Source: a virus (Duplodnaviria > Heunggongvirae > Uroviricota > Caudoviricetes). Taken from it: a stretch of 64,000 nucleotides of DNA. The translations under genes were made by a program, and so were the position numbers. The stretch is taken from positions 15,734-79,733 of IMG/VR virus record IMGVR_UViG_3300046674_000485; one strand, written 5' to 3'. Positions 22,169 through 50,532 of this stretch are shown one piece after another; positions within the stretch are counted from its first letter, which is position 1; the number at the start of each line of letters is the position of its first letter. A model generated the notes under the pieces. That model saw only the letters and a list, made by a program, of their open reading frames with translations, was not told the origin of the DNA and ran no database searches.

Positions 22169-22244
22169 TGCGGGATAGCTCAGGCGGTAGAGCAGGGGTC
22201 TCATACGCCTCGTGTCGCTGGTTCGAGTCCAGCTCCCGCAACCA
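22169..22244 (+). tRNA. tRNA with CAT anticodon (Met elongator or Ile2/lysidine type)
   Basis: TGCGGGA TA GCTC AGGCGGTA GAGC A GGGGT CTCATAC GCCTC GTGTC GCTGG TTCGAGT CCAGC TCCCGCA A CCA; perfect 7-bp acceptor stem; encoded CCA; T-arm resembles Ile2. Confidence 0.85.
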
Positions 22245-23245: not shown

Positions 23246-23319
23246 ATCGCTGTAGCTCAGTTGGTAGAGCAGCGGCCGCAAGCCGTGTGTCGGTGGTTCG
23301 AATCCACTCAGCAGCACCA
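23246..23319 (+). pseudogene. tRNA-like element (pseudo-tRNA)
   Basis: canonical D-arm TAGCTCAGTTGGTAGAGC and T-arm GGTGGTTCGAATCCACT with CCA end; anticodon arm has a 5-nt loop (GCGGC-CGCAA-GCCGT) and a 4-5 bp acceptor stem. Confidence 0.6.
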
Positions 23320-33085: not shown

Positions 33086-33113
33086 GCGTCTAAACGTTAC
33101 ATACAGGAGCGCC

Positions 33114-33806: not shown

Positions 33807-34251
33807 GCTGACTGTCCAGGCGCCGAGCGCCGAGGAGATGGCGCGCCGCCAGCAGAGCGCGCTCCAGGCCGTCGCCGTGGCCACTGGCAAGAGCGAGGTG
33901 CTCGACAAGCTGGAGCAGTGGACCGAGGAGCCGGCCGCCGCCCTGGCGCCCGCGGAGCCGGCCCCGGTAGCCGCCAAACCGCGCCGGGCGAAGACGGTGA
34001 AGGGTGGGGCAGGGGAGGTCGCTGCGGAGGCGCCTGCGGCCCCGGAGCCGCCGCCCAGGCCGAAGCGCCCCTGGGAGGAGCCGAGCCCTGACGCGACGCA
34101 CCCCTACCACGTGATCCTGTCGGAGCGCCTGTTCCGGAAAATGGACTTCGCCTGGAAGCGCAAGGGCTACAAGAGCGCGCGCGAGTTCACCCTCATGGCG
34201 CTCGAGGCGGCCGCCGATCAGGCGCTGAAGGAGCTCGGGGAGGCGCCATGA
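33793..34251 (+). CDS. ParG/ParB-like small partition protein (C-terminal ribbon-helix-helix)
   Basis: ATG 33793 overlaps the parA 3' end; Pro/Ala-rich linker; C-terminal YHVILSERLFRKMDFAWKRKGYKSAREFTLMALEAAADQ. Confidence 0.5.
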   Translation: MSRPKLTVQAPSAEEMARRQQSALQAVAVATGKSEVLDKLEQWTEEPAAALAPAEPAPVAAKPRRAKTVKGGAGEVAAEAPAAPEPPPRPKRPWEEPSPDATHPYHVILSERLFRKMDFAWKRKGYKSAREFTLMALEAAADQALKELGEAP

Positions 34252-34814
34252 CCGAAGGCGAGCAGCAGGAGCTGGACCTCCAGGCTGAATACGGGTGGTT
34301 CCACGTCATGCGGCCCAGGATCCTGAAGGGGCTCCTGGCCGAGGTCGGCGAGACCGCCTGGGCCGTCTACACCGTGATCAAGTGCCACGCCAACCACCAC
34401 ACCGGCGTGGCCCACCCGAGCCAGGAGACGATCGGCCGGCTGATCGGGAAGTCCACCGAGACCGTCAGCCGGGCGACGAAGGCCCTCATCAAGGCCAAGC
34501 TGCTGACCGAGACGGTCAGAGGCAGGCACAAGGAGTACACCATGCTCGAGTCCGCGCCGGTCGTTGAACGCACCTCTGGCACCCCGCACGGGGCCGCCGA
34601 GTGGCAGTACGTGCCGAAGGAGTTCGGCGCCCAGGTGGCCGCGCTGAAGTCGTTCATCGAGAACGGCATCGATCTGCCGAGCGGCATCACCCTGAACCTG
34701 AACGTCACTCTGATCCAGCAGCGCGACCATGGGTCGGTCACGGTGAACATCGACCCCGGCGTGGCCCAGCGCGCCGACATGCAGGCCCTGGTGGCCAAGC
34801 TCAAAGGCCTCTGA
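34248..34814 (+). CDS. winged-helix DNA-binding protein (possible plasmid-type Rep/regulator)
   Basis: ORF track; HTH IGRLIGKSTETVSRATKALIKAKLL; lies between the par genes and the DnaA-box region. Confidence 0.5.
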   Translation: MTEGEQQELDLQAEYGWFHVMRPRILKGLLAEVGETAWAVYTVIKCHANHHTGVAHPSQETIGRLIGKSTETVSRATKALIKAKLLTETVRGRHKEYTMLESAPVVERTSGTPHGAAEWQYVPKEFGAQVAALKSFIENGIDLPSGITLNLNVTLIQQRDHGSVTVNIDPGVAQRADMQALVAKLKGL

Positions 34815-35116: not shown

Positions 35117-35311
35117 ATGCTATTGCTCACCGTCGCCCTGGTCGCCTTCATCGGGTTCTTCGCCCTGTTCCCCGACAAGGTGCGGGCCATCAAGGATGGC
35201 TCCGGCACCGTCGTCGGGTGGCTGGTGGCGATCGGGGCGGCAGGCTGGGTGATCGGCGCGCTGCTGCAGCTGGCCCGCTACGGCACGATCACCACCCCCT
35301 GCTGCGGCTAA
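35117..35311 (+). CDS. possible small two-TM membrane protein, 64 aa (uncertain)
   Basis: ORF track; GC3-rich; weak RBS; convergent and stop-overlapping with the giant gene. Confidence 0.3.
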   Translation: MLLLTVALVAFIGFFALFPDKVRAIKDGSGTVVGWLVAIGAAGWVIGALLQLARYGTITTPCCG

Positions 35312-38300
35312 TAGATCGCCTTGGCGTTGTCGCTCTGCCGGTCGCGGATCGCCTGGATGCGGTCACGCTTCTCGGCCGGCGACGCGGCGCTGCGCTCGAT
35401 GTCGTGGATCGACTGGTTCGCCTTGGCCTGGGCCTGCTTGACGTGCTCCACCTTGGTGTAGCGCGCGAGCTCCTCGGCGTGGTCCTTGGCGAACGCCTTG
35501 GCGTCCTCGGCCTTCCCCTCCTTCATCAGCTGGCGGTGCGTGGCGTAGGCCTGCTCGAGCGCCTTGGCCTGCTCGTAGACCGAGCTCACGTACTTGGAGC
35601 TGGGCTCCGGCAGGCTGCGCACGATACCCTGGGTCACGACCCGCAGGTAGTCCGCCTCCGGCCGGGTCGGCTCGTTGGTCATCGGGCGGATGGCCATGTC
35701 CGCGCCCGACACCACGAAGGTGCCGAGCCAGCCGAAGTAGCCCTTCAGCAGTGAGTCGATCTGCACCGGGCTCAGGCCCTCGGCGCCGACCGTGCTGGTC
35801 ACCGAGTTGAGCGCCGTGCTCGCCGCGCGCGCCACCATGCTGGTGCCCGAGTTGTAGCGATACTCCGACTTCAGCTTCTCCATGCCGGCCGTCTCGATCG
35901 GGCGGCCGGTGAAGGCGTCCTTGTTCGAGTAGACGTCGATGATCGGCTTGACCGCCTGGGGGATCGGGTTCATCGACAGGTTGTCGCTGGCGATGTGCAG
36001 CAGCCGGTCGCGGAAGCGCGTGGCCGTGAACTCCTTGTTCGTGAACAGCTCCACGCCGCGCTCGGCCAGCGTCGCGATGGCGCCGATCTCGAATGGCTTG
36101 GGGATGCGGAACGCGGTGCCGCCCAGCTTGAACCACCAGAAGCCATCGCGGTCGAAGTCCTCGCGCTTCTTCCAGTCCTCGTCGTCGCCGTACGCGGCCA
36201 TCAGGGCGACCGACACCAGGGCGACGGCGCCCGTCACCATGGCGAAGCGGCGCGGATCCTCCTGGGCTGCACGGCCCAGCTTGTACAAGCCCTGCAGCCG
36301 GGCGTTCATGAACGGCACGACCTGGGTCAGGAACCGGATGCTGGCCCAGGTGCCCTGCATCGAGAAGTCCATCAGGTCGCGCGCCATCAGCGACGCCTCG
36401 GCGTGGCCGACGCCCTGCTTGCGCAGCTGGCTGTAGAGCGCCGAGCGGTTGATCTCTTCGCCGCGGTTGCCGATCTCGTGATAGGCCTGGACCGCCGGGT
36501 CGACGAACTTGTCGTAGAAGGCCTTCACCTTCTCCGGGTTGTTCAGGATCGTCGACTCCTTGACGCCGCGCTTCACCAGCTGGCGGATGCGCTCGGAAGC
36601 GTTGCCGTCCATCATGGTGCCGAATCGGATCAGACCGCCGCTGGCCAGCGCGGAGACGTACTCCTGGCTGTCGCGGGCCGAGTGCTTCAGGCCGTCGGCG
36701 ATGTTCTTCACCGGGTTGTAGGAAAGGCCGCTCGTGCCGATGGCCTGGATCGTGTCGCGGATCAGGTTGCGCACCTTGAACGCGGGCGACGCCGTCACGC
36801 CGGCGGTGAGCCAGTGCTTCATGGTCGACAGCGCGTCCATCAGCGGGCCCTTCAGGCCGGCGTATTCCAGGCTGTTGATCGCGGCCAGGACGTAGGGATC
36901 CTCGACCAAGAAGTGGCGCTGCTTGCCGCCATCCATGAACCAGACGACGCCGTTCTTGTTGCCGGTCGACTTGCCCATCTCGCGCACGGCATCCTCGCTC
37001 GCCTCGATGGCGACGCCGACGTTCTGCGCTGCCTCGAGGGTCGCGCGCGCGGCGCGGTTCTTGGCCGCCGCGTCGATCAGGTGGGACCAGTTCTGCAGCG
37101 TGTTGGACAGCAGATCGGAGCTGAGCTTGTCCTTGCCGCCCTTGAGCTTCTTGAAGGCCTGCTGGCGTGCGATGCCGCCCTTGATCTTCGAGCCCATGAA
37201 GGCGCCATCCTCTTCGCTCACGCGGTAGAAGGGCACGTAGAACTCGCTCTCCCAGAACTTGCGCGCCTCGCCGTCGATCAGGCCGCTCTGCTCGGCCATG
37301 TCCATCGTGTTCTTGTTGAACTCGTTGAACTTCTCCAGGCTGTCGCGGTAGGCCGCGGCGCGGTCGGTGGTCGTGCTGCCATCCTGCATCGTGTACGGGC
37401 GGGCCAGCTGGCCGTCGGCGAGCGACTTGCCGGCTGCGATGTCCTCGGCCGTGAAGAGGTGCTCGCGGTCTTCCTTGGACAGCTTCTCGGCGCGGTTGGC
37501 CGCGATCCACTGCATGAAGTCCTCGAGCTCGGCGCCCAGCGGGTTGCCGACCTTTTCGATGAAGCCGCCCGTCATGTCGGCGTCGTAGGCGTTGTCCACC
37601 AGCTTCAGCTTGCCGTGGTGCAGCAGCGCCTCGAACGCGCCGGCCGCACCCTTGGACAGGCGCGCCAGGGTGTAGGCCTCGCCGCCGAGATCCTTCAGCG
37701 GGCGGAATTGGTCGACGAGGCCCTGGGCCATCTTCTTGCCGATGTCCTGGCGCGCCTCCTTCAGGCGCTCCTTCAGGCTCTTCTCTTCGGTCGTGCGGCC
37801 GATGTTGCGGAACATCGCCTCCTGCTCTGGCGTGTAGGCGCGGCCGCTGTGGCCGGTCGTGCGCTCCTTCGAGAACAGCGGCGCGCCGCCCTCGAGCTGC
37901 TCGCGCATGGCTGGGGTGATGTCGATGGCGAGCTGATTGGCTGCTGCAGCTGCAGAGTCTTCAACCTCCTCTGCAATCCTGTAGGTGCTCTCGCCATAGT
38001 CGTCATCCTCCTCGATGGCTGACAACTTGGCTTCGGCGGCGGCGCGGCTGTCGACCTCGGCAACCCAGTCGACATTGCCCGTGTCGTTCCAAACCTCTTC
38101 GATGATGTACTTGGTCTTTTTTGCGCCGACGCTTGTCTCGCCCACCTTCCCGCCCAGCTTTTTCGCGAGGTCGCGTGCCACCTGGGGGACGATGCCATCG
38201 TAGAAGGCCTTCATGCCTTCACCGCCGACTTCGAGCTCGACGCCGCTCAGGATGCGCTGGCTGTTCATGTCGCGCTTGGTGTCGAGCAGCTTGCGGGCGA

Positions 38301-41300
38301 CTTCCTTGCCGATGATGTCATCGAGCTCGCTGTCGCTTTCAACCTGCTTCTTGAACACGTTGGCGCCATCCTTGCGGGCGACCAGCGTCTTGTCATCGTA
38401 GTAGACGACCTGATCAATCTGCTTGCGCAGGCTGTACAGGTCGGCCGCCTGCTTGCCGTTGATGAAGGCCACCTTGTCGTAGTCGCCGCGCGCGGCCTCG
38501 ACCAGGGCGCGCTTCATGGCCAGGGCGACCCAGCTCTTGGTGTCGGCGACGAAGGGGCCGGCTGGCGCGCCTTTGGTGAGTTCCGATTCGCCATACGTGC
38601 GGTGCGCTTTCTTCAGCGCCAGGGCGTCGTCGTCTGCGTGCACGAAGCCGATGACGTTTCCGGCCACCACCACCTCGTAGGTGTCCTCGTCGTCCGTCTC
38701 GTCAGTGCTCTTGCGCACGGTGACATCGAGCTTCTTGGCGAAGCCGATCCTCTTGGCCTGCTGCCCCCAGTCGGACTGGATCTCGTTGACGAACAGCACC
38801 TTGTTGCCGTCGGCATCGGTGCGGTCGTCCAGGCGCAGATGCGCCAGGATGTTCTTCTGGTCCCAGTGGCCGGAGGTGTAGGGCTTTGGCCGGTCTGGCA
38901 GGCTCTTCATTTCCTTCACCGCGGCGACGTTCTCTTCGTCGGTGAGATCAACCCACCGCTTGCCGAAGAGGCGCTTGGCAATCGCGTCGGTCGTCGAGTC
39001 GTCCGGCAGCGTGATCAGCACCTCGCGGTAGTTGTCGCCGCCGGGCACGGTGTACGTGGCGTACTTGGTCTCGACGGTCTCGGGGCCGTACTTATTGACG
39101 GCGTCCTTCAGATGTTGCGGCAGATCGCGGTAGTCGATGTCCTCGCCATCGGGGTCGATGAAGTGGGCGGCATCGCCATAGTCATCCACGGCGATCTTGT
39201 AGCCGGTGCCGGCGAAGGCTTCGCGCATGGCTGCGTCCTTGCTTGGGTCGCGACCCAGCACGGTCTCGCCAACCTGCACGCCGTTCTCGTCGACCCAGGT
39301 GGCGAGCTCGTCCTTCGAGATCTTGTCGCGGCCGCGCATCTTGAGCATGTCGAAGACGCCCGACCACTCGAGCTCGTCGGCCTTCACGCCCATCTTGCCG
39401 GCGTTGGCCTTGAGCCACTGGGCCCAGGCCGGCGCGGCCTGCGTCGCGAGGCGCTCGGGCACGGCGGCCAGGGCGCTCGAGAGCTGGCTGTAGTAGATGC
39501 CGCGGTCGGCGCTGCGCTTGGCATCGCCCGCCTGCAGTCGCTCCCACGCCAAAGCAGCCGGGCCCGTCAGCGTTTTGGGGTCGACCTTTTCCTGCGTGCC
39601 CCACTTGCGAAGCCCGTACACATCAGGGCGACCCAGGCTCGGCACTCCCTGCGTCTTGTCCAGCGCGATGCCACCCTTCTTCAGGATGGCGGCCGCCCGA
39701 TCGAAGTCCATCTCGCCGCCGGCGGCGCTGTCATCGATCATGGTGCGCAGATCGGAGGCGATCTTCTTGTCGTCCGTTTCCGCGGGCCACTTGCCGGCGC
39801 GCTCCAGGCGCGACAGGTCGTTGGCCGCAATCTCGATCAGGTTGGGGCCCGACAGCACCTCGGTGCGGAATGGGCGCGTCGGCGCCAACCGGCTTCGCGG
39901 GTACTTCTTGTCGAGAGCTTCGAACGCGGCGAGGCGCTCTGGGCCCGCCGGGATCTCGTTGGCCGCGGCCCAGTCGGCACGCGACTCGCGGTCGGCGGCG
40001 GTCTGCAGCTCGTCGTCCCAGACTTGGCCGAACTGCACGTCGCCAGCCCCCAGCTTCACCCGGAACGCGTGGATCGCGCGCTCCTTGGTGGGGGCGTACT
40101 TGAGGTACGCGCGCGCCTGCTTGACGGCGCGCTCGGCCTCCTCGGCATCGCGTGCCAGATAGCCGTACAGGCCATTGCCCAGCGGGCGGATCTGCATGCC
40201 GCCGGCGCCCTCGCCCTTGCCGAGGTAGCCCGCATCGAGCTGATCGAAGTCGCTGCCGGCGTGGATGATGAGGTGCTCGCGCTCGGCGCTGAACTTCACG
40301 CTGGCGTCGGGGCGCATGAACTTCTCTTTCAGCTCGGCGCGGTGGGCCCACGAGATGGGCGTCAGCGTGCCGGTGAGGAAGCCCTGCTCGGCCTTGTCGT
40401 GCGCCCAGCGCTGCGGGGTCGCGAACAGGCTCGTGAGCGGCTTGGCGTCGTCGGTGGTGCCCACGTAGTAGACGACCGGCACGCGCTCGACGCCGGCCTT
40501 GGCCAGGGCCATCATGCGGTGGCGGCCCTCGTGGCCGGTGACCTTGAACGAGCCGCGCATCGGCGAGTCATCCTCGATCTTGCCCTCGAGGAAGATCTCC
40601 TGGCTCTGCTTCTTCAGCTCGGCCGCATCCAGGGGCGTCGCCTCGCTCTCCAGGCGCGCGCGCTCGGCCGCCGGGGTGGTGGCCGCCAGGAAGTCCTTCG
40701 GGCTCACCCAGCCGGCGTAGGCCTTGGTGCGGTTGTCGTCCTGGGTGTAGGCGTACTTCGACATCAGCTGGTCGATGCGGTCGCCATCCCAGGCGGCGCG
40801 GTCACGGCTGCGGGTGATGTCTTTCTTCGACGGGTCGAAGCCGCCGTCGTTGCCGATGGCCGACTTCACCTGGGCCGACTCGAAGGCGACGAAGACATCG
40901 CCATGCGTCGCGTCGCGGAAGACGACGCCGTCGTGCCCGGCGCGCTTGAGCTGCTCCCACAGGGCGCCCTGGGCCTTCTTGTAGTTGGACGCGTACTTGA
41001 TGACGTCCGGCCACTCCGCGTAGACCTTGGGATTCTGGATCGACAGGTAGACCGGGATGACCCGGCTGGCCGTGTTCTTGGGGACGTACTTGCCGCCCTC
41101 GAAGATGTGGCCCATGCTGTCGTTTTCGACGGCGTACTGGGATGCGCCCTCGGTGCTGTCGGTGAACCAGATGCCGTTCTTCGGCGCCTTGAAGGACTTG
41201 AAGTCGACGTCGGCCGAGGTGCCGGTGTAGACGACCTTGGGCTTGCCGTCAGCGTCGACGATCTTCGATTCGCGGAACCACGCCTTGAAGGCGGGCGTGC

Positions 41301-44300
41301 CAGTGCGATCGGCCGAGCGCGTAATGTCGGCCTGGGCCGGATCGAAGGCGCCGCTGTTGCCGGTGGCGCTCTTGATCTGGGTCGGATCGAAGGCGATGAA
41401 CTCGTTGCGACCGTGGTTCATCAGGCCGTCGTAGCCCAGGGCCTTCAGCTCGGCGACGTCATCCTCGGTCAGGAAGGCCGAGGACGTCTTGTCCGAGAGC
41501 ATCTTGTTCAGGCGGTCGAGCCGCTTGCCCATGCCGAGCACGCGAGCCACCACAGCCTTCACCTTGCCGACCGGGTCTTGGTCGATCACCAGCGGGTGCT
41601 TCAGGGACAGGTAGACCGGCATGACGTTCGCACCGTCGCGGCCACCGTAGACGGCTGCATAGCCGGGCGATGGGCTGAAGTAGAAGCCGTGCGTGTAGGT
41701 CGGCTCGCCCTTCTTCGCATCCAGGCTGAACTGCGAGAAGTCGCCGCTGGTGCCGTGATAGACGACGAGCGGCTTGCCCTGGTCGTCGACAACCTTGCTG
41801 TCGCCGAACCAGCGCTTGAACTCGGGGGTGCCGGTTACTCGGTCGCGGGAGAGGCGAGCTTCGCTGCCTGGACCTTGATCCTGGCCAGCTTCTCCGGATG
41901 CTCCCGGTTCACCTTGTCGAAGTGCGCCCGGGCCGCGGCCATCCGCTGCTCGCGCTCGGCCGGCGTCGGCGGCGGCACGCGTGGCCGCGAAGGTGTTCCA
42001 GTCGAGTTTTCCGTCATACGCTGCTCCGTCTTCGAGGTTCTGTTGAGGAATGCCCACCCGCTCCCAGAAGCCGCGGGCCTCGGTCACGATGTTGGACACA
42101 TCCAGGGTAACATTTTGTTGGCTGGCCAGCAAGGTTTTGATGGCGCGGACGCCGACGCCCTTGGAGCGCCCTTCCTTGTTGACCTCGATGTCGTAGAGCG
42201 CCTTGAGCTTTCCGTCCACGAACAGCAGATCGGTGTAGCCCAGGAACTCGCCGGTGGTCGGCTCGACCAGCTGCAGCTGGTACATCTTCTCGCGGCTCGG
42301 GTCCGCGGGGATGTAGTCGAAGCGCTCGGTCGGGTTGCCGTAGCCGATGAAGAGGTCGTGGCTGGAGAACTCCGGCGCGCCGGCCTCGTCGATCTGGGTG
42401 TCCACCTGGGGGCGCTCGATGGAGCGCTTGGCCGCCGGCAGGCTGCCCTGGCGCGCCTTCTCCGGCATGGCTGCGATGAAGTCCTTCATCGGCTTGTCGA
42501 CCTTGCGGTCGCCGGTGAGCGAGAACTCGACCGGCAGCAGCGCGGCCTTCTGGCGCGCGAAGCCGCGCTCCTTGGCCGACAGGGACTGGTCCAGGCCGCT
42601 GCGGAAATTGACCCAGCTGTTCTGGCCGCGGGTCTCCGACGTCAGCGCCCAGCGCGCCCAGGGGTTGGACGTGGTGGCCATGTGGTTCTTCCAGGCGGCC
42701 TCCTCCCCCTTCGGGCCGAACTGGGTCTCGCTCATGCCGTGCGCGAAGTAGTCGTGCACCGTGCGCAGCAGATCGTTCATCAGCAGCGGCGTGCCGTTGA
42801 CGTCCTCCAGGCCGGTCTGCTCGAGCAGCGGGTGGCCGGTGAAGTCGACGCCCTCGGGCCCGAACGACTCGGGGCCGGTGCCGTAGACGAACATGTGGTT
42901 GTTGTCGAGGATGTCCTGGCGCATGCCCTTGGAGTTGGCATAGGGCTCGCCGTCGCCCTTCCAGATCTCGACCTTGATCGGCAGCGCCTTGAACTGGGTG
43001 ACCAGCTCCTTGGCCAGCTCGGTGTAGGCGCGCTTGACCTGGGGGCGCTTCAGGTCGTTGTCGGGCAGCGCCTCGTAGGCGTCGCCGATCTCGCGCTGCA
43101 GGGCGGCCTGCTCGGGCGAGACCTCCGCGGCCTGTTCGAAGGCCTTGACCTTCTCCTGGCCGTTGAGGTACTCGGCTACTCGGCGCGCGGTTTGGCTTGC
43201 GGCCGACGGCCCTGGGGCAACGTCGCCACGAATTCGTTCGTATCCGATTGTTCCTTCACCGTGACCGTATGGCCAGAGGCGCGCAACCGACTGTTCAGAT
43301 CCAGAGCTGCTTTTTCCAAGGCGTTCAGCGGCTCGCTCGATGGCTTGCTTGAAGGCACTGATTTGTTCGTCATTGTTGACATCTCCAACGTAGTAAGCCT
43401 CGACGAAATCATCGCCGAACGTGAGCCCGTAGAGACCCGACTCGTCGATCACCTTCTGGATCTGCTTGGCGGTCAGCGCCTGCTTCAGATCCCAGCGATA
43501 CGACAGCGTCGCGTACGAGCCATCCTCGAACACGGTGCCCAGCTTGGCCGTCGTCGGCTTGCGCACATGCACCTGCTCTTGATTGAAATTATCCGCGAAC
43601 TTCGCCAGAGCCGCCAACACTTTGTTGGAGTCGTTGTCGGTGAACGTCACGGTCATGCCCAGCGACGGCTCCGAGGCGCCGCCGTACAGGCCGGTGCTGC
43701 GGTCGACCACCAGCTTGGCGGAGGTGCCGGCCATCAGGTGGCGCAGGCTGTCCGCGGCGATGTCCTGCAGCAGCGCGTGGGCGAACTTGTCGCCCTTGCC
43801 AGCCTTGACGTACAGCTCGGCGATGCCGGGGATGCTGTTGGTGGCGGCCGACAGGGTGACCGAGATTCGGTCCTTGGTGTCGGCGTTGGCCAGGATCCGC
43901 GCCTCGCGGTCGGCCGGGTTGTCGGCGATGGCCGAGTTGAACGACGTCGCGCCATCGGCGGCGAACGAGCCGGCGTCGGATCCCTCCCAGGCCATCGGCT
44001 CCATGCCGCCGGCCATGTTGAAGATCTCGTTGCGGGCCTCTGCGCGCGAGAGCTCGCCGGCCTTCACGCGGTCCCAGACGGCGCTGACCTTGGGGGCCAG
44101 CTGGCTCTTGCGGGCCGCCGGGAACAGTGCGCGCACCGCCTCCCAGGTGATCGACTGCATCTCGCGCGGCAGCACGTTGCGCTTGGCCGCCGCGTCGCGG
44201 TAGGCGTCGGCGAACAGGCCATAGCTGCCGCCGGCGCCGGTCTCGGCATTGCTGCCGGCCGTGCCGAAGTTGTCCTTGACCTCGGGCGTGTTGCCCGACA

Positions 44301-47300
44301 GCGCCTTCACCAGCGCCGCGGCGATCGCGTGCGTGTCGATGGTGACGTGGCCCTGCTCGCTCTGCGGCGCCACGATGTTGTTGTAGAAGTTGCGCACCTT
44401 GTGCTCGCCGCCGAGCATCTTGTCGATGTTCTTGACGGAGCCGCTGCGCAGGATCGAGACGGCCTTGCCGATGGTGCTGAAGCCGCCCCAGGTGATCGAG
44501 CTCTCGCCGTCGTCGTTCTTGGTGACGTAGTCGCCGAAGCCGCCCTCGGGCGTGATCAGGCGGTAGCGGCGCTCGAAGTAGGTCTCGTCGAAGATCCGCG
44601 TGAAGCGCGCGGCATCCTCGAGGTCCATGCTCTCGAGCGTCTCGCCCTCCAGGCGCTTCGCATCGGCGATCAGGCGCGCGCGGTCGTCGCGGTCCTTGAC
44701 CGTCTTGGCGGCGCCGACGTAGCTCTGCACCCAGGCGGTCATGTCCTTGGTCCACACCTCGCGGCCGCGGTTGCGGTTGATGTCGATGACGCGCTCGCCC
44801 AGGCTGACGTTCTTGAACCAGTCCATCTGCGGGCTGAGCACGGCCAGGACGCCGGCGGCTTGGCGCTCGGTGATGTCGTACTTCGTGGTCCAGTCGTTGG
44901 CGATGCGGTTGGCACCGTCGTACCAGAGGCGCGCGCGCTTGGAGATGTCGGCCGGCACGAGGTCGTGCAGCCACAGCAGGTTGTCGACGACGACCTCGTG
45001 GAGCTCGGCCATCAGCTTCTTCGGGTTGCCCTTGCCCGACAGCGTGTTGTAGGTGCGCAGGGCCTTGGCGATCGCGTCGACGTGGCGCTCGGAGGCGCGG
45101 ATGTCGTCGCCGTCGATGACCCAGTTCTCGGTGTAGCTCTTGTCCTCGGAGCCCTTCGCGCGCGGCACCGTGGTGCTGAGTTCGATGCGCGACTCGGGGT
45201 CGGTGAAGTCTTCGCGCTGGCGGGACTGGGTGATGTCGCCGGACGCGCCGTCGAACTCGCCGTTGTTTCCGGTGGCGCTCTTGATCTGCTCCGGATTGAA
45301 GGCAACCCAGTCGTCGCGGAGGTCGCCGAAATCCGTGTCGCTGTCTCGGATGACGATGCCATCGTTGCCGGCTGCCTGCAGCGCCTTGCGCAGGGCGGTG
45401 GCCGAGCCGGCCTTCTTCAGCGCACTCTCGAACGCGTCGTGACCCTGGTATTCCTTGGGGGACTTGATGGACAGGAAGACATCCATGACGCGCGCTTCGC
45501 CACCGCTTTCCTCGGCAGCATCCACCGAGAAACTGATCGCGGCGCTGCGTGCGTCGGAGTCGGCAAGTTCATGCTCGTCGCTGCTGGCTGCGGCGGCTGT
45601 GAACCATGCGCCGATGTCGCCAGGGTAGTCGGTGCCCTCGCGCCCGGTGCGGAACTCGGAGAGATCCACGGCGGTCCCGTGGTAAGCCACCAGCGGCTTG
45701 CCGTTGGCGCCCACCGCCTTCGAGTCGCCGAACCACTTGTCGAACTCGGCAGGGGTCTCGCGCTCGGCGCTGCGGCGCACGGCCATGCCCTCGGGGACGA
45801 CGGGCTCGCTGCCGGCCGCCACGAGCGCCTTGTTGATGTCGTCGCGGCCCACCAGGGTCGCGGTCGTGCCTGGGCCCTGCGGGTGGTCGTCGAAGGTGAG
45901 CGTCGCGCCGCGGCCGCTGGCCTTCGTGATCATGCCCTCATTGTCGCCCTTCTTGGCGCGCTGGCCAACGAGCTGGTCCTTGATGTGGCGGAGGTCGCCG
46001 GCCACCGCTTCAGGGCGATAGCGCTTCCAGAACTCGAAGGCGTCGTCGCTCAGCGAGATGGCGGGCTTGAGCTGCTTGCCGGCCTTCTCCTCGATCTGCG
46101 CGTACATCTGGCGCGCGATGCCGCGCTGGCGGTAGTCTGGATGGACGGCCGACTCCATGATGACGAAGTCGCCGTTCGAGTCGTTCCAGGCGTGGGCACG
46201 ACCGACGACGCGCTTGCCGACCTTGGCCACCGCGGAGTCTTTCATGCCGCCCTGCTCGACGACAACCGCCTTGCGCGCGGCGCTCTGCTTGGCCTGCTCG
46301 ATCTGCGCCTGCATCTCCGGCTGGCTCAGACCCTGGTCACGCACGTAGTCGGCCACCGCGGTGGTGAACGCGGCGCGGATCTCGGCCATGTTGTCGACCA
46401 GCTCGGCCGACTTGTAGTTGCCCTGGCGGATCGTCTTCGTCAGGCGCTCGAGCGCGCCGTTGATGAAGGCGGCCAGCTGGGCGATGATGCCCTGCGCCTG
46501 GGCGCCGTTGTCCTGGCGGATCTTGGCGAAGACGTCGTTCCAGAACGAGCCGTCGGTCATCAGGTCGCCGCCCAGGTCGGAGGTGACCTCCTCGAGGACG
46601 GAGCCCTGGTCGTAGCCCAGGTCGGTGTAGACCTTGCGGGCGCCGGTCTTCAGGCGCGCAGCCACGACCGCCTCGAGCGCAGCGTGCGCCTTCGGGTTGT
46701 CGGCCTTCAGCTGGTGCATGAGTTCGTGCCCGAACACGGCCAGCGGCGAGATGCCGGTCGCTTCGTTCAGGTAGATCAGGCCCGACGCGCCAGGGACGAC
46801 GAAGCCGTCGCCCACAGTGTTGCTCGGGTCGCTGAAGAACTCAACCTTCTTGCCGAAGAGCGCGCCGATGCCGCGCAGCATGGCGGCCTGGGCCTTGGTC
46901 ACGCGCAGCGCCTTGCCGCCGCGGGCAGCCGATGCGGTCTCGGGCAGCTCGCTGGCGCGCACGCGCTGGAGCTCGAGCTGCTTGCCGTTGACGTTGATGG
47001 TGAAGTGCTGGGCGCCCGGGGCGATCGGCTCCGGCGCAGTCATCACCACCGGCGCGGCCGGCTTCTTCGAGGTCTTCGGGTTCTTGGCCCAGGCCTTGAA
47101 CTCCTCGACCGTCATCTGGGTCACGGCGCGGCGGCGGCGCGGGCCCGAGCCATCGCTGAAGTGGGCGTCGTAGATCTTCTCGGCCTGGGCCTGGGTGGTC
47201 ACGCCGACCACAGCCTTCACCTCGTCGAACGAGCCGTCGTCGTTGTACTGGTCGAAGACGAACACCGGCGCGCCGTGGCGCGGGTTCGGCGCGACGTAGA

Positions 47301-50300
47301 GGTCGACCGGGTCGCCGTCGGCGCCTTCGGTGTGCAGCAGCTCGCCGTAGTCGGCCGTCATCTTGACGGACCAGGGCTTGCCGCCAGGATCCTCGCCGCT
47401 GCGGGTGGTGCCGATCGGGTTCTCGATCTTGAGGTCCATGCCGTCGTGGCGGGCCTTGACCGCATCGCCCTCCTCGCCCGACGACTTGTCGGCGCGCTCG
47501 CGGTACTCGGCGGCGATCTGTGCGCGCGCAAGCACGGCGTCGGCCGCGCCGTCCAGGCGGAAGCGCTGGCGGTGGGCGTTGACCATGTCGAAGGTGCCGT
47601 CGTCGTTGCGCACGACGTGGCGGTAGCCGTTGTCCACCAGCTGCCGCAGGGTCGCCTTGCGCTTGCGGTGCACGGCGGTGCCTGGGCCCGCGGGGATGGC
47701 CACGCGCGGCGCCGGGACGCTCTCGCCGGCGCGCTCGGCGGACTGCTTGACCTCGGCCTCGCGCAGGCTGGCCAGCTCGGTCTTGTCGGCGGCCGACAGG
47801 TTGAACGGGCTCGAGGCTGCGTTCTGCAGGATCGCCATCTGCGCGGCGGTGTAGCGGGCGCGCGCGGCGTCCGCGACGGCCTTCTGCTCGGCGGTGCGCA
47901 GCGCGGGGATGGTCTTCAGCGCAGCCAGCGTGGAGTCGACGCTCGGCGCGACGGCAGCGCGCGGCGCCGGTGCGGCGGCGGGCGGGCCCTGGCGGGTGCC
48001 CTGGCCAACCTCGACGGACGAGCTCGGGCTGCGGGCATGCGCGGCCTCGCGCTCGGCGGTCTCGCTGAGCACCGGCGTCTGCGGGTTGTAGCGCGTGGAC
48101 TCGCGCGGCTTATTGCCGAGGGCGATGCCCGTGGCCTGCGTCAGCTTTTCGTCGGTCGACAGCGGCGCGGCGAGCGTCGGGTCGATGCGGTCGTAGGGCT
48201 TGCCCAGGCCTGCCTCGTGGAAGATCTGCGCTTCCGCGGGCGAGGCGACGCCACCGCGCTCGGCGACAGCCTTGTGGGCGGCGGTGATGACGGCCTGACG
48301 CGGGGCGTCCTCGGCCTTGCGGCTGGCCTCGCTGCCGGCCAGGGCGGCACCCTCGAGGCGCTCCTGTTCGCCGGCCGCAAGGGGTTGCGCAACGGGGGTT
48401 GCGGGGGTTGCTTCAGGGGTTGCGACCGGCGCGCCCAGGCGCTGCTCGCGGTTGGTCTGGGCCTGGGCCTGGGCGGAGGCCTTGTCGGCTGCCGTCGAGG
48501 CGCCGTTGATCTGGTCCTGCAGATCCTTGTCGCGGTCGGCGCCGGCGCGGCGCTCGGACGGCGTGGTGGGCGCGCTGCGCGGCACGTCGGTGGCGGCTGC
48601 CGTCTCGGTCGGCGCGACGGTCGGAGCCACCTGCTGGCCAGCCCACTCCATGGCGAACTCCAGGCGCGACAGGGCCTGCTCGCGCGCGGCGGCCGGCGTG
48701 CTCGGGCTCTGGGCGATCGCGAGGTCGTTGACGAACTTCGTGGCCCCGGCCTTGTCCTCGGCCTGCAGCTTGGCGATGACGCCACCCTCGCGCGCGCTGG
48801 ACGCGATGGCGCGGGCCTTGTCCATGATCGGATCGGCCTGGGGCGCGTTGGCGGCAGCCTCCTGGGCCGCGGCAGCCTGCTCCTGGCCAACCTGCTGCGC
48901 GATGGCGTCGGGCGTGTTGCCGGCCATGGCGGCCTTCGACAGCGAGCCGCCGGCGGCCGCAGCATCGGCCACGGGGGCCAGCGCTGCGGTGCGCTGGTGG
49001 AGCGCGGTGCCGGCGCCGCCGGCTGCGCCACCGAAGGCGCCCACGGCGGCGGAGTCGATCCGCTCCTTCTCAGCTTCGGGCGTGAAGAGATCCTTCTTCG
49101 CGCCGAACTGCTCGATGCCGGTCTGCACGTACTCGGTGCCGCCCTGGGTCACGACGCCCTTCGGCGCTTCGGTGGCGAGGCGCTTGGCGTAGCTGCCGGC
49201 GGTCGAGCCTTCCTTCATGCCCAGCAGGCCCTTGGCCATCATCAGGTCGGCAGCCGTGTCAACGCCGGCGGCGGCCAGCGCGGAGGCCCACACGCGGCCG
49301 ATGTCGACCTGTTCGCCGGTCTTGCCGGCCTGCTCGACGGCGTCGCCGTAGATCGAGCCGCCTTCCTGGCGGATGTTGTTCGCGAAGATGGACGACGCGG
49401 CACCCATCTGGCCAGCGACCTTGCCGGCGGCAGCGGCGCCGATCTGCTCCTTCGTCATGGCCTTGCCGGCCTCGCTGGCGGAGAGCTTGGCCATCTCCTT
49501 CTCGACCAAGCCCTCGGCCAGGGTCTTGACGGCTGCCTTGCCGATGCTCTTGCCGATGATCGCGCCGACGCCGCCGGTCACGACCGACTCGGCCACCTGA
49601 TAGCCCAGGTAGCCGATGGCGTAGGCGGCCCACTGCGACAGGTCGCCGTCCTTGCCGATGGCGTCGGTGAACGAGGAGTGCTCGCCGAACAGCTTGCCGG
49701 CTTCCTTGTTCTTGCCCTCGGCGAACGCCATCAGGTTCTGCTGCACGGCCGGCGCGATGCCGGCGGTGTTCAGGATCAGTGAGCCGACCTGGGCGGCCAG
49801 CGCCTGGGAGCTCTTGGCGCCGCCGAGCGCGGAGTTTTTCAGCGTGCCGAGGAACGTCTTTTCGTCGGGCAGCGCATCGCGCGAGTAGGGATCCACCCCG
49901 GGCTGCTGCTGTGCCTGGGCGCCACCGCCGTCGACCGCGGCCGCACCGGGCTGCACGCCGGCCTTGCGCGCGGCGGCAATGATGGATGGCACGTAGTTCT
50001 GGGTCTCGGCCGGGAGGAAGCGCAGCCACGCGTCGGGCGTGCCGGCCATCTTCGCGCGAGAGAGCGCGGAGGTCATGGCGCCGGGGCCGGCGTTGTAGGC
50101 GGCCAGGGCCTTGAGCTCGTCGCCACCGAAGTCGGCGAGCTGCTTGTTGAAGTAGGCCGAGCCGAGCGCGGCGTTGTAGGCCTTGTCGGTGCGGTAGCGC
50201 AGCTCATCGTACGGCAGGCCAGCAAGGCGAGCGGCCTCGGGCGCCGTCCCCGGCATGACCTGGGCAACGCCGATGGCACCCTTGGGGCTGGTGATGACCT

Positions 50301-50532
50301 TGCCGGCGGCATCGAACTGCTTGTTGCCAGACTCCTGGCCGAGCAGATAGTTGAACAGCGGGTGATCAGCGCCCGCGCGCGGCTGTGCGGCGGGCGCGGC
50401 CGACTGGCCTGCCAGCTCGAACTGGAAGTCGGCAGCCGGGGCTGGTGCCGCCGTCGACTGTGCGGCGGGCGACGCGGCGATTGCGGGGGCTGCTGCGGCG
50501 CCGGGCGCCAGTTCGAATTGGAAATCGCTCAT
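35308..50532 (-). CDS. giant 5074-aa multi-domain polyvalent (DarB-like) virion protein with N-terminal lytic transglycosylase
   Basis: single uninterrupted ORF; residues 55-190 are an SLT domain (ESGN...AIGVAQVMP...AYNAGPG); HELMH zincin motif at 46714-46728; GNAT-like segment near 46003-46215; ParB/Srx-like GHEGRHR near 40453-40665; three repeated modules. Confidence 0.85.
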   Translation of the reverse strand: MSDFQFELAPGAAAAPAIAASPAAQSTAAPAPAADFQFELAGQSAAPAAQPRAGADHPLFNYLLGQESGNKQFDAAGKVITSPKGAIGVAQVMPGTAPEAARLAGLPYDELRYRTDKAYNAALGSAYFNKQLADFGGDELKALAAYNAGPGAMTSALSRAKMAGTPDAWLRFLPAETQNYVPSIIAAARKAGVQPGAAAVDGGGAQAQQQPGVDPYSRDALPDEKTFLGTLKNSALGGAKSSQALAAQVGSLILNTAGIAPAVQQNLMAFAEGKNKEAGKLFGEHSSFTDAIGKDGDLSQWAAYAIGYLGYQVAESVVTGGVGAIIGKSIGKAAVKTLAEGLVEKEMAKLSASEAGKAMTKEQIGAAAAGKVAGQMGAASSIFANNIRQEGGSIYGDAVEQAGKTGEQVDIGRVWASALAAAGVDTAADLMMAKGLLGMKEGSTAGSYAKRLATEAPKGVVTQGGTEYVQTGIEQFGAKKDLFTPEAEKERIDSAAVGAFGGAAGGAGTALHQRTAALAPVADAAAAGGSLSKAAMAGNTPDAIAQQVGQEQAAAAQEAAANAPQADPIMDKARAIASSAREGGVIAKLQAEDKAGATKFVNDLAIAQSPSTPAAAREQALSRLEFAMEWAGQQVAPTVAPTETAAATDVPRSAPTTPSERRAGADRDKDLQDQINGASTAADKASAQAQAQTNREQRLGAPVATPEATPATPVAQPLAAGEQERLEGAALAGSEASRKAEDAPRQAVITAAHKAVAERGGVASPAEAQIFHEAGLGKPYDRIDPTLAAPLSTDEKLTQATGIALGNKPRESTRYNPQTPVLSETAEREAAHARSPSSSVEVGQGTRQGPPAAAPAPRAAVAPSVDSTLAALKTIPALRTAEQKAVADAARARYTAAQMAILQNAASSPFNLSAADKTELASLREAEVKQSAERAGESVPAPRVAIPAGPGTAVHRKRKATLRQLVDNGYRHVVRNDDGTFDMVNAHRQRFRLDGAADAVLARAQIAAEYRERADKSSGEEGDAVKARHDGMDLKIENPIGTTRSGEDPGGKPWSVKMTADYGELLHTEGADGDPVDLYVAPNPRHGAPVFVFDQYNDDGSFDEVKAVVGVTTQAQAEKIYDAHFSDGSGPRRRRAVTQMTVEEFKAWAKNPKTSKKPAAPVVMTAPEPIAPGAQHFTINVNGKQLELQRVRASELPETASAARGGKALRVTKAQAAMLRGIGALFGKKVEFFSDPSNTVGDGFVVPGASGLIYLNEATGISPLAVFGHELMHQLKADNPKAHAALEAVVAARLKTGARKVYTDLGYDQGSVLEEVTSDLGGDLMTDGSFWNDVFAKIRQDNGAQAQGIIAQLAAFINGALERLTKTIRQGNYKSAELVDNMAEIRAAFTTAVADYVRDQGLSQPEMQAQIEQAKQSAARKAVVVEQGGMKDSAVAKVGKRVVGRAHAWNDSNGDFVIMESAVHPDYRQRGIARQMYAQIEEKAGKQLKPAISLSDDAFEFWKRYRPEAVAGDLRHIKDQLVGQRAKKGDNEGMITKASGRGATLTFDDHPQGPGTTATLVGRDDINKALVAAGSEPVVPEGMAVRRSAERETPAEFDKWFGDSKAVGANGKPLVAYHGTAVDLSEFRTGREGTDYPGDIGAWFTAAAASSDEHELADSDARSAAISFSVDAAEESGGEARVMDVFLSIKSPKEYQGHDAFESALKKAGSATALRKALQAAGNDGIVIRDSDTDFGDLRDDWVAFNPEQIKSATGNNGEFDGASGDITQSRQREDFTDPESRIELSTTVPRAKGSEDKSYTENWVIDGDDIRASERHVDAIAKALRTYNTLSGKGNPKKLMAELHEVVVDNLLWLHDLVPADISKRARLWYDGANRIANDWTTKYDITERQAAGVLAVLSPQMDWFKNVSLGERVIDINRNRGREVWTKDMTAWVQSYVGAAKTVKDRDDRARLIADAKRLEGETLESMDLEDAARFTRIFDETYFERRYRLITPEGGFGDYVTKNDDGESSITWGGFSTIGKAVSILRSGSVKNIDKMLGGEHKVRNFYNNIVAPQSEQGHVTIDTHAIAAALVKALSGNTPEVKDNFGTAGSNAETGAGGSYGLFADAYRDAAAKRNVLPREMQSITWEAVRALFPAARKSQLAPKVSAVWDRVKAGELSRAEARNEIFNMAGGMEPMAWEGSDAGSFAADGATSFNSAIADNPADREARILANADTKDRISVTLSAATNSIPGIAELYVKAGKGDKFAHALLQDIAADSLRHLMAGTSAKLVVDRSTGLYGGASEPSLGMTVTFTDNDSNKVLAALAKFADNFNQEQVHVRKPTTAKLGTVFEDGSYATLSYRWDLKQALTAKQIQKVIDESGLYGLTFGDDFVEAYYVGDVNNDEQISAFKQAIERAAERLGKSSSGSEQSVARLWPYGHGEGTIGYERIRGDVAPGPSAASQTARRVAEYLNGQEKVKAFEQAAEVSPEQAALQREIGDAYEALPDNDLKRPQVKRAYTELAKELVTQFKALPIKVEIWKGDGEPYANSKGMRQDILDNNHMFVYGTGPESFGPEGVDFTGHPLLEQTGLEDVNGTPLLMNDLLRTVHDYFAHGMSETQFGPKGEEAAWKNHMATTSNPWARWALTSETRGQNSWVNFRSGLDQSLSAKERGFARQKAALLPVEFSLTGDRKVDKPMKDFIAAMPEKARQGSLPAAKRSIERPQVDTQIDEAGAPEFSSHDLFIGYGNPTERFDYIPADPSREKMYQLQLVEPTTGEFLGYTDLLFVDGKLKALYDIEVNKEGRSKGVGVRAIKTLLASQQNVTLDVSNIVTEARGFWERVGIPQQNLEDGAAYDGKLDWNTFAATRAAADAGRARAADGRGPGALRQGEPGASGEAGQDQGPGSEARLSRDRVTGTPEFKRWFGDSKVVDDQGKPLVVYHGTSGDFSQFSLDAKKGEPTYTHGFYFSPSPGYAAVYGGRDGANVMPVYLSLKHPLVIDQDPVGKVKAVVARVLGMGKRLDRLNKMLSDKTSSAFLTEDDVAELKALGYDGLMNHGRNEFIAFDPTQIKSATGNSGAFDPAQADITRSADRTGTPAFKAWFRESKIVDADGKPKVVYTGTSADVDFKSFKAPKNGIWFTDSTEGASQYAVENDSMGHIFEGGKYVPKNTASRVIPVYLSIQNPKVYAEWPDVIKYASNYKKAQGALWEQLKRAGHDGVVFRDATHGDVFVAFESAQVKSAIGNDGGFDPSKKDITRSRDRAAWDGDRIDQLMSKYAYTQDDNRTKAYAGWVSPKDFLAATTPAAERARLESEATPLDAAELKKQSQEIFLEGKIEDDSPMRGSFKVTGHEGRHRMMALAKAGVERVPVVYYVGTTDDAKPLTSLFATPQRWAHDKAEQGFLTGTLTPISWAHRAELKEKFMRPDASVKFSAEREHLIIHAGSDFDQLDAGYLGKGEGAGGMQIRPLGNGLYGYLARDAEEAERAVKQARAYLKYAPTKERAIHAFRVKLGAGDVQFGQVWDDELQTAADRESRADWAAANEIPAGPERLAAFEALDKKYPRSRLAPTRPFRTEVLSGPNLIEIAANDLSRLERAGKWPAETDDKKIASDLRTMIDDSAAGGEMDFDRAAAILKKGGIALDKTQGVPSLGRPDVYGLRKWGTQEKVDPKTLTGPAALAWERLQAGDAKRSADRGIYYSQLSSALAAVPERLATQAAPAWAQWLKANAGKMGVKADELEWSGVFDMLKMRGRDKISKDELATWVDENGVQVGETVLGRDPSKDAAMREAFAGTGYKIAVDDYGDAAHFIDPDGEDIDYRDLPQHLKDAVNKYGPETVETKYATYTVPGGDNYREVLITLPDDSTTDAIAKRLFGKRWVDLTDEENVAAVKEMKSLPDRPKPYTSGHWDQKNILAHLRLDDRTDADGNKVLFVNEIQSDWGQQAKRIGFAKKLDVTVRKSTDETDDEDTYEVVVAGNVIGFVHADDDALALKKAHRTYGESELTKGAPAGPFVADTKSWVALAMKRALVEAARGDYDKVAFINGKQAADLYSLRKQIDQVVYYDDKTLVARKDGANVFKKQVESDSELDDIIGKEVARKLLDTKRDMNSQRILSGVELEVGGEGMKAFYDGIVPQVARDLAKKLGGKVGETSVGAKKTKYIIEEVWNDTGNVDWVAEVDSRAAAEAKLSAIEEDDDYGESTYRIAEEVEDSAAAAANQLAIDITPAMREQLEGGAPLFSKERTTGHSGRAYTPEQEAMFRNIGRTTEEKSLKERLKEARQDIGKKMAQGLVDQFRPLKDLGGEAYTLARLSKGAAGAFEALLHHGKLKLVDNAYDADMTGGFIEKVGNPLGAELEDFMQWIAANRAEKLSKEDREHLFTAEDIAAGKSLADGQLARPYTMQDGSTTTDRAAAYRDSLEKFNEFNKNTMDMAEQSGLIDGEARKFWESEFYVPFYRVSEEDGAFMGSKIKGGIARQQAFKKLKGGKDKLSSDLLSNTLQNWSHLIDAAAKNRAARATLEAAQNVGVAIEASEDAVREMGKSTGNKNGVVWFMDGGKQRHFLVEDPYVLAAINSLEYAGLKGPLMDALSTMKHWLTAGVTASPAFKVRNLIRDTIQAIGTSGLSYNPVKNIADGLKHSARDSQEYVSALASGGLIRFGTMMDGNASERIRQLVKRGVKESTILNNPEKVKAFYDKFVDPAVQAYHEIGNRGEEINRSALYSQLRKQGVGHAEASLMARDLMDFSMQGTWASIRFLTQVVPFMNARLQGLYKLGRAAQEDPRRFAMVTGAVALVSVALMAAYGDDEDWKKREDFDRDGFWWFKLGGTAFRIPKPFEIGAIATLAERGVELFTNKEFTATRFRDRLLHIASDNLSMNPIPQAVKPIIDVYSNKDAFTGRPIETAGMEKLKSEYRYNSGTSMVARAASTALNSVTSTVGAEGLSPVQIDSLLKGYFGWLGTFVVSGADMAIRPMTNEPTRPEADYLRVVTQGIVRSLPEPSSKYVSSVYEQAKALEQAYATHRQLMKEGKAEDAKAFAKDHAEELARYTKVEHVKQAQAKANQSIHDIERSAASPAEKRDRIQAIRDRQSDNAKAIY

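Follow-up and report, generated by a model that had tools for sequence, protein, structure and literature searches.

An intact 15.2-kb gene for a cysteine-free, LPD38-anchored polyvalent protein of 5074 residues in a podophage virion module

Polyvalent proteins are regarded as the weapons that a phage brings to bear earliest on its host and, to our knowledge, almost none of them has been dissected experimentally. The virion RNA polymerase of phage N4, which has a zincin, is classed among them, and DarB of phage P1 is a large anti-host protein that is packaged in the capsid and injected. Here we describe a gene for an unusually large protein of this class, carried by IMG/VR virus record IMGVR_UViG_3300046674_000485 (Caudoviricetes), of which a stretch of 64,000 nucleotides (positions 15,734 to 79,733 of the record; the window hereafter) was analysed. 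The gene, located at 35308..50532 on the minus strand of the window, encodes a protein of 5074 amino acids (aa) that we call the giant.

The polyvalent class was described in 2017 as proteins of 2-15 domains; inorganic pyrophosphatase (InPase), LPD38 and lysozyme domains were exclusive to the phage-type members, MPTase was proposed as a processing hub, the occurrence of GNAT acetyltransferases beside ADP-ribosyltransferase (ART) domains was remarked on, and the active site of the ART-PolyVal (Tox-ART-HYD2) clade was given as H-Y-D (Iyer et al. 2017, PMC5512222). T4 Alt, which is delivered from the capsid and modifies host proteins at the start of infection, is a model for such ART modules (PMC5512222), but it is a single-domain protein and belongs to the R-S-E rather than the H-Y-D clade. 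Three described proteins share the C-terminal region of the giant. From JC1 gp69 (4515 aa), 79% identical to Bcep22 gp75, 51 unique peptides were detected in virions purified on CsCl (PMC9144972). The 2811-aa, LPD38-containing gp47 of phi24B was abundant in the virion proteome and absent from the cryo-electron microscopy map, and its authors propose that it is encapsidated and acts as an ejection protein (bioRxiv 10.64898/2026.04.10.717836). Finally, PTXU04_00025 of an Escherichia phage (2198 aa, with LPD38 as its only annotated domain) was critical for efficient infection by CRISPRi-ART.

Compared with these systems, the giant is a recognisable, unusually large protein of the class described in 2017. 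Its domains were called by Pfam, NCBIfam and PHROG searches, and the remaining segments were mapped by homology to 271 collected relatives, giving ~12-14 recognisable modules (Table 1); ~45% of the chain received no Pfam or NCBIfam assignment. A preliminary description of the locus had proposed a polyvalent protein in the sense of Iyer et al., and this was borne out by strong Pfam matches to three ART-PolyVal copies, to InPase (PF18823) and to LPD38. The same description held that the domain order fitted no nameable family, a statement that did not survive the searches, since the triple module it referred to is PF18760 and the C-terminal region is LPD38 (PF18857), in a family of ~9,800 members. 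The giant joins unrelated catalytic domains of conflict type in one chain, is located among virion genes and carries phage-restricted domains. With the described class it shares the InPase, LPD38 and transglycosylase domains, multiple H-Y-D ARTs, a GNAT by an ART and a zincin; it differs in that its module count is near the upper end of the range, its zincin misses the MPTase-PolyVal model and it has extra modules outside Pfam. None of the new observations changes the classification.

The giant gene is intact, shows coding-type codon usage and encodes a 5074-aa polyvalent protein. As had been claimed, it is a single uninterrupted 15.2-kb open reading frame (ORF) of 5074 codons, with its ATG at 50532, its stop at 35308-35310 and no internal stops; the strand, which the preliminary description did not give, is the minus strand. 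The translation contains all the motifs quoted there: GHELMHQ (aa 1268), the GNAT segment (aa 1457) and GHEGRHRMMALAKAGVERV (aa 3333). Those of the SLT domain, ES, GVAQVM and AYNAGPG, lie at aa 67-151. A Shine-Dalgarno-like AAGAG stands 5 nt ahead of the ATG, and the stop of the preceding gene is 11 nt ahead of it. Guanine-plus-cytosine (GC) contents at the three codon positions (GC1/2/3) are 0.66/0.46/0.92, in surrounding DNA of 65-72% GC.

One could suppose that the ORF is an artefact, either genes fused by mis-assembly of the metagenome or a chance long frame in GC-rich DNA. The exact protein is indeed a singleton in public collections, known from one 85.6-kb JGI/IMG contig under the automatic name 'RimI-like acetylase', and the gene had no megablast match in a collection of 50,697 phage records. 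GC-rich DNA also yields long spurious ORFs, of which the window contains an example: an antisense ORF of 3726 aa at 38602..49782 on the plus strand. The GC1/2/3 of the latter (0.92/0.47/0.67) mirrors that of the giant gene and its composition is aberrant (L+A+G+V+R make up 69%, and K, Y, M and N are nearly missing); it is a GC shadow cast by the GC3-rich codons of the giant gene. Because the 0.92 value falls on GC3 in one frame and on GC1 in the other, the minus-strand frame is real and the plus-strand ORF spurious. Against an artefact also stand the high GC3 along the frame, the significant family matches that this frame gives between residues 52 and 4955, the relatives of 4462-5118 aa with the same overall organisation, and the origin of Bcep22 gp75 (4602 aa) and JC1 gp69 in isolated, sequenced phages. 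We therefore regard an artefact as scarcely credible. Independently of this question, the shadow ORF is a trap for gene callers.

The part of the giant that is shared most widely is its C-terminal anchor. The preliminary description had noted a conserved C-terminal region of roughly 1000 aa; the conservation was confirmed, while the region proved to be ~855 aa long and to belong to a named family (LPD38, PF18857). Alignments showed the conserved motifs DYVPFYR, IPFFNAxIQGL, KIPIPFE and FFTGRPI. When 1.84 billion representatives (clusters at 50% identity) were searched exhaustively by phmmer with the anchor as query, 9,794 had matches at E <= 1e-3, 7,479 of them at E <= 1e-10, and in all of the best 150 of the 9,794 the anchor was found at the extreme C-terminus. 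Among these best 150, lengths ranged from 673 to 5118 aa (median 2631), with 11 proteins of at least 4000 aa and 6 of at least 4500 aa, one of them being the 5118-aa protein. Since the lengths form a continuous range, 5074 aa is near the top and not an outlier. The giant had been placed among the largest phage proteins, which holds as a position near the top of the family range and not as a claim to uniqueness. A size of 1.6x any relative, suggested by a word-indexed search with aa 3270-5074 that gave proteins of up to 3158 aa, was likewise discarded after the exhaustive search. No relative has more than ~55% of the residues of the giant in common, from which it follows that the cargo is exchanged as discrete modules; upstream of the anchor, the cargo was indeed shuffled module by module among anchor-bearing relatives. 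The anchor fold appears to be mostly helical and novel, without a solved structural homolog.

Anchor-bearing giants also close the virion module in isolated phages. The Achromobacter phage CF418P1 protein (2684 aa, 6481-14535) has an anchor 40% identical to that of the giant and also an InPase, and the 3190-aa protein of Aeromonas phiARM81mr carries the anchor too; each is encoded by the last virion gene. The 'putative portal' label that the CF418P1 homolog bears in GenBank is probably a mis-annotation, as nothing in the fold search spoke for a portal.

Comparison with the giants of Bcep22-like phages, which the preliminary description had suggested, was fruitful. The anchor profile matched Bcep22 gp75 at aa 3758-4588 (E 2.9e-51), the two genes occupy the same position, and three flanking virion proteins are distantly homologous and syntenic to Bcep22 gp64, gp67 and gp70. 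BLASTP of the giant against gp75 found nothing at E 1e-3; a profile match without BLASTP similarity means that both proteins share the anchor and gene position, not the cargo. The layout is that of Bcep22-like phages, in which a 'DarB-like' protein of ~4500-4600 aa closes the module after the tail fibres and a virion protein of ~510-530 aa. In common with the Lessievirus proteins Bcep22 gp75 and JC1 gp69, the giant is encoded by the last virion gene, and it shares their anchor, size, lack of cysteine and the InPase-plus-following region of phrog_10089 (the 'DarB-like' match, spanning aa 1026-1369). It differs in cargo, having an N-terminal SLT, three ARTs, GNATs and DUF7178. The phi24B and PTXU04 proteins share the C-terminal LPD38 anchor (PTXU04 matched aa ~4250-5073 at 25.5% identity by tblastn) and are respectively virion-associated and needed for infection, but they have about half the size of the giant, and their cargo is LPD1, LPD5 and a MuF-C metallopeptidase in phi24B and none annotated in PTXU04. 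'DarB-like', the term of the preliminary description, is what PHROG and GenBank annotators call this class. Pfam, NCBIfam and PHROG detected neither the helicase nor the DNA-methyltransferase domains of P1 DarB across the 5074 aa, so that the name is an analogy only. Partners of the DarA, Hdf, DdrA and DdrB kind were not seen in the window.

The giant gene is the last of a podophage virion module and lies on the same strand as the virion genes upstream of it. Towards the giant, the order is the SU10-type adaptor, tail-fibre proteins, an internal virion protein, further proteins of the tail and virion and, next to the giant, one of 554 aa. Absence of cysteine is a further link to virion relatives. 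The giant contains 0 Cys in 5074 residues, compared with 0.81% in the other ORFs of the window (P ~1e-18); zero Cys was also found in 109 of 149 anchor-bearing relatives (the best representatives, P0113-P0261), in Bcep22 gp75 (0/4602), in the CF418P1 giant (0/2684), and in the 554-aa and a 481-aa protein of the same virion module. This family-wide shortage fits transit of an unfolded chain through the tail channel and the oxidising periplasm, a passage that the absence of Cys would reflect. As a separate observation, the phage encodes a tRNA-Cys, yet the giant gene, about a quarter of the window, has no Cys codons.

We consider it likely, with a probability of roughly 0.8, that the giant is made late, packaged in the capsid of a Bcep22/933W-like podophage and ejected before or with the DNA, its parts acting as follows. 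The anchor would get the giant into the capsid and/or build an envelope-spanning ejection conduit; it has a single membrane-type helix. The N-terminal SLT would cut peptidoglycan during penetration, as T7 gp16 does. Within minutes of the start of infection, covalent changes to nucleotides or host proteins would be made by the ART, GNAT and InPase modules, disarming defences or redirecting the cell in the manner of T4 Alt, and the zincin may cut the chain in cis at inter-module junctions, freeing effectors.

The position of the gene and the virion relatives bear directly on a different scheme, in which the giant is an unpackaged late cytoplasmic polyprotein, cut by its own zincin into enzymes that act in the producing cell, for instance in host takeover or, through the SLT, in helping lysis. 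Such a scheme could draw on the fact that the virion evidence comes from relatives alone, on a zincin whose intact site could process a polyprotein, and on the window itself, where no lysis cassette adjoining the giant gene was identified. It has to contend, however, with a gene placed inside the virion module straight after tail and internal-virion genes, with anchor-bearing homologs physically present in virions (JC1 gp69 and phi24B gp47), with the extreme Cys depletion common to those homologs, and with the little use that a producing cell would have for host-takeover enzymes made late. We therefore judge it very improbable, and packaging followed by ejection remains the preferred reading.

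The cargo starts with an Ala/Pro-rich leader whose repeated DFQFELA heptad might be a packaging or targeting signal. The SLT domain that follows had been predicted as in T7 gp16-type proteins, and is supported by Pfam (Table 1) and by NCBIfam transglycosylase matches; it is 64-67% identical to its counterparts in virion proteins of Delftia RG-2014 and Bordetella BPP-1 and was present in just 2 of the 271 relatives. T7 gp16 also has its SLT at the N-terminus; it is an internal podophage protein of very large size that is ejected to cross the envelope. No homology to gp16 was found in the giant beyond this domain. The long Ala/Gly/Pro-rich linkers mentioned in the preliminary description were recovered by a composition scan as Ala/Pro/Gly-rich stretches at aa 1-69, 170-273, 483-892 and 2841-2906. 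BLAST to closer relatives matched aa 245-494 to ~18 proteins (31-38% identity). A 170-aa N-domain conserved in 41 relatives was considered for the giant and rejected, its match being fragmentary and non-significant (E 0.01).

Downstream of the InPase, the HExxH site GHELMHQ had been read as a zincin, and an alignment of 32 homologs supports this, with H1269, E1270 and H1273 as well as the downstream E1315 and D1319 invariant. The homologs came from the search of representative proteins, the word-indexed search having found none for this region. Single homologs gave sub-threshold matches to two families of HExxH peptidases, Peptidase_M48 (E 0.0013) and M78 (E 0.05); the single sequence of the giant matched neither MPTase-PolyVal (PF18818) nor any other Pfam model at E<=5, and PDB was searched without a match both with the sequence (aa 1150-1430) and with the profile. 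From its invariant residues, we accept the module as a predicted functional, gluzincin-like peptidase outside the current MPTase-PolyVal model. The acetyltransferase segment next to it, also foreseen, matched Pfam Acetyltransf_1/7/10 above gathering scores.

The three modules of roughly 160 aa in the preliminary description are indeed three copies, of ~180 aa, and were wrongly considered to lack a nameable family: they match PF18760 and are therefore ADP-ribosyltransferases of the polyvalent-protein clade. The copies have diverged (37-55% identity in conserved stretches), and copies 2 and 3 combined matched PF18760 with E 8e-50 (170 bits). The strand-1 His lies in YHGT in ART1 and ART2 and is a Thr in ART3 (YTGT), whereas the Asp of xDG is kept in all three; the Tyr of the H-Y-D site could be placed only tentatively. 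ART1 and ART2 are thus probably active, judging from their residues; with the catalytic His replaced, ART3 may be inactive, a pseudo-enzyme, or may have an altered activity. Each of the GNATs 1 and 2 sits upstream of the next ART copy, the arrangement remarked on in 2017. Between ART1 and GNAT 2 is a ~900-aa block containing DUF7178, which aligned contiguously with relatives P0015, P0125 and P0141 at 44-65% identity. Beyond its Pfam core, aa 2270-2336 (~43525-43725) gave a sub-threshold Pfam match to S-adenosylmethionine lyase (E 0.021), which, if true, would be an anti-restriction activity; a PDB sequence search with aa 1800-2760 gave no match.

After ART3 comes a module named here after its invariant core, G-HEGRHR-xxAL..G..VPV (10 sequences), whose structure model is confident (predicted local distance difference test, pLDDT, ~90). 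The preliminary description had seen a ParB/Srx-like segment in it, and we rejected this identity: neither the single sequence nor the 10 members matched ParBc or DdrB-ParB (PF18763) in Pfam, the profile had no match to a solved ParB/Srx in PDB, hhalign with P0078, a relative bearing a true DdrB-ParB domain, gave a probability of 0.2%, and Foldseek did not find the ParB/Srx fold in the model. The next 247 aa are an orphan stretch with no homolog among the 271 relatives and a pLDDT mostly <50. The ~560-aa module that precedes the anchor most likely contains a cryptic GNAT-fold domain: the GNAT fold was found in aa 3666-4220, where there was no Pfam match and hhalign to GNAT 1 gave a probability of 0.4%. 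A PDB sequence search with aa 3200-4235 gave no match, and neither the HEGRHR nor this GNAT-fold module is among Pfam families.

These modules bear on whether the giant might primarily be a structural ejection or conduit protein, a trans-envelope conduit or component of the internal core like T7 gp15/gp16, in which most of the enzyme-like modules would be no more than vestigial spacers. A conduit role is what the phi24B authors propose for gp47, PTXU04_00025, with nothing annotated but the anchor, is needed for infection, the anchor has a hydrophobic helix, and the long low-complexity linkers, the degenerate ART3 and the weak GNAT 2 would suit a spacer. By contrast, catalytic residues are conserved in the SLT, InPase, zincin, ART1, ART2 and GNAT 1; the cargo is shuffled as intact enzyme modules, as expected of an arms race and not of a spacer; and the range of 673-5118 aa in the family indicates a length that is unconstrained, unlike that of a ruler or conduit. 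A purely structural role is on this balance unlikely, and we retain the view of the giant as an ejected carrier of enzymes.

Processing of the chain was considered from a motif at its junctions. S-x-[DE]-R occurs 9 times in the giant (2.5 +/- 1.5 expected), and 8 of the 9 sites coincide with module boundaries that had been defined on other grounds (aa 1588, 2704, 2895, 3073, 3242, 3415, 3674 and 4221), the ninth being at aa 931; aa 4219-4222 correspond to 37867-37878 of the window. The motif usually follows K/R or F, as in KRSADR, RRSAER, ITRSADR, KFSAER and LFSKER. As a family-wide cleavage motif it was rejected, its enrichment being restricted to the giant and a few relatives that share modules.

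Several points weigh against packaging, ejection and processing as set out above. Packaging and ejection would hold for the giant by extension from its relatives, and the enzyme activities of its modules are predicted. In structure, the anchor did not detectably resemble any known portal or ejection protein, and its proposed role is drawn from how conserved it is, where it lies and which phenotypes its relatives show. Genes for the capsid, portal and terminase lie outside the window. About 40% of the giant is without a named family; this part comprises the linkers, HEGRHR, the orphan stretch, the DUF7178 block beyond its Pfam core, the anchor apart from LPD38 itself and the greater part of the 560-aa module. 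Some modules may be inactive, because ART3 is without its His, GNAT 2 is sub-threshold and the cryptic GNAT lacks the canonical motif, its QSDWxQxGxKxG departing from the R/Q-x-x-G-x-G/A of acetyl-CoA-binding motif A. In relatives overall, strict S-x-[DE]-R was not enriched (0.98-1.3x), and the looser S-x-x-R at the anchor junction, 8-fold above background (4.5%), was present in only 38% of them. The junction motif may be a processing site or a recombination or junction cassette, and cleavage there is speculative.

A more ambitious version joins all these elements. The ~855-aa LPD38 anchor would be a hitherto uncharacterised, structurally novel delivery module, near-universal in a large group of podophages: a 'cargo carrier', essential for infection, that inserts into the envelope by its single hydrophobic helix and pulls a Cys-free, unfolded effector chain of any length through the tail; the zincin would then cut in cis at semi-conserved [hydrophobic]-S-x-x-R junctions and free up to about a dozen independent enzymes, including a new GNAT-fold family and the HEGRHR domain, both of new activity. 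We put this forward tentatively, doubting that all its parts hold together. If true, the giant would rank among the richest effector cassettes in nature and could serve as a template for engineered phage protein delivery.

Table 1. Modules of the giant and other features of the window. Coordinates are window positions.
Feature	Residues (aa)	Window position	Strand	Remarks
Ala/Pro-rich leader	1-50	50383..50532	-	Heptad DFQFELA twice (aa 3-9, 35-41), each followed by an Ala/Pro-rich stretch
SLT lytic transglycosylase	52-200	49933..50379	-	Pfam PF01464, E 3.5e-13 (aa 52-161); catalytic ES, GVAQVM, AYNAGPG
Gly/Ala-rich N-terminal region	245-500	49033..49800	-	31-38% identity to ~18 relatives, at their N-termini
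Ala/Pro/Gln-rich low-complexity linkers	501-1010	47503..49032	-	Composition scan; aa 723-934 common to 5-6 relatives
InPase, polyvalent type	1026-1150	47083..47457	-	Pfam PF18823, E 5e-35; DGDPVD motif
HExxH zincin (gluzincin-like) metallopeptidase module, candidate processing protease	1171-1438	46219..47022	-	31 relatives
GNAT acetyltransferase 1	1428-1495	46048..46251	-	Pfam Acetyltransf_1/7/10, E ~1e-6, above gathering scores
ART-PolyVal copy 1 (ART1)	1582-1775	45208..45789	-	Pfam PF18760, E 3.6e-18, 67 bits; His and Asp present
DUF7178-containing block (~900 aa)	1811-2726	42355..45102	-	PF23802, E 1.4e-26; Pfam core aa 1848-2135
Weak GNAT 2	2755-2830	42043..42270	-	Acetyltransf_1, E 0.004 (under cutoff); NCBIfam acetyltransferase, E 0.001
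ART-PolyVal copy 2 (ART2)	2885-3070	41323..41880	-	PF18760; His and Asp present
ART-PolyVal copy 3 (ART3)	3071-3245	40798..41322	-	PF18760; strand-1 His replaced
HEGRHR module, compact alpha/beta domain without known family	3246-3418 (173 aa)	40279..40797	-	~15 relatives
Orphan stretch	3419-3665 (247 aa)	39538..40278	-	Between two conserved modules; predicted helical or disordered
Widespread ~560-aa module	3666-4220	37873..39537	-	56 relatives, at variable positions
C-terminal anchor (~855 aa)	4221-5074	35311..37872	-	phrog_18222, E 4e-209; 223 of 271 collected relatives
Strongly hydrophobic helix in anchor	4763-4781	36190-36246	-	Single
LPD38 Pfam core	4784-4955	35668-36183	-	PF18857, E 1.3e-37, 130.2 bits (cutoff 27)
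554-aa Cys-free protein		50544..52208	-	No Pfam or PHROG family; 11-nt gap before giant
'Internal virion protein'		55682-57610	same as giant	Upstream; phrog_511
SU10-type head-to-tail adaptor		63023-63649	same as giant	Upstream
HTH (helix-turn-helix)/replication-initiator-like protein		34248-34814	+	Convergent with giant gene
ParA-like partition ATPase		33063-33806	+	Convergent with giant gene
SPFH/Band-7 protein		31577-32467	+	
MazG-like / nucleotide pyrophosphohydrolase-like proteins (two)		29597-30295 and 3176-4009	+ (both)	
tRNA cluster Gln-TTG, Met-CAT, Cys-GCA		22078-23319	+	Lowest-GC part of window (~0.61)
RNase H		19754-20218	-	

The 554-aa protein encoded immediately ahead of the giant is probably translationally coupled to it. 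It stands where virion proteins of ~510-590 aa precede the giants of JC1, Bcep22 and CF418P1; its sequence showed no similarity to theirs, which leaves position as the only correspondence. By analogy with that arrangement, it might be a partner or chaperone of the giant.

The rest of the window encodes RecT/exonuclease, SSB, a DnaC-like loader, NinB, RNase H, ParA and three tRNAs (Table 1). The ParA-like and initiator-like genes convergent with the giant gene suggest a plasmid-like prophage lifestyle, and no integrase was found among the window ORFs scanned, which are a part of all its ORFs. The SPFH/Band-7 and RNase H genes are accessory, as are two MazG-like or pyrophosphohydrolase-like genes; with the latter two, the phage has nucleotide-pyrophosphatase functions beyond the InPase of the giant.

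The giant joins about a dozen modules to an anchor which, judging from relatives, is essential and carried in virions. The candidate effectors of early infection that it brings together are an InPase, DUF7178, HEGRHR, a zincin, two ARTs that are probably active and GNAT-fold domains, two or three in number. Three features can be generalised beyond this protein, namely a very large anchor family (~9,800 clusters at 50% identity) with no solved structural homolog, the exchange of cargo as discrete modules, and the near absence of Cys across the whole family, which is a simple testable signature of proteins ejected unfolded via the periplasm. Given that the giant belongs to a class already described, the remaining interest lies in this large, structurally uncharacterised anchor family, in the cryptic GNAT-fold and HEGRHR modules, and in the Cys-free signature.

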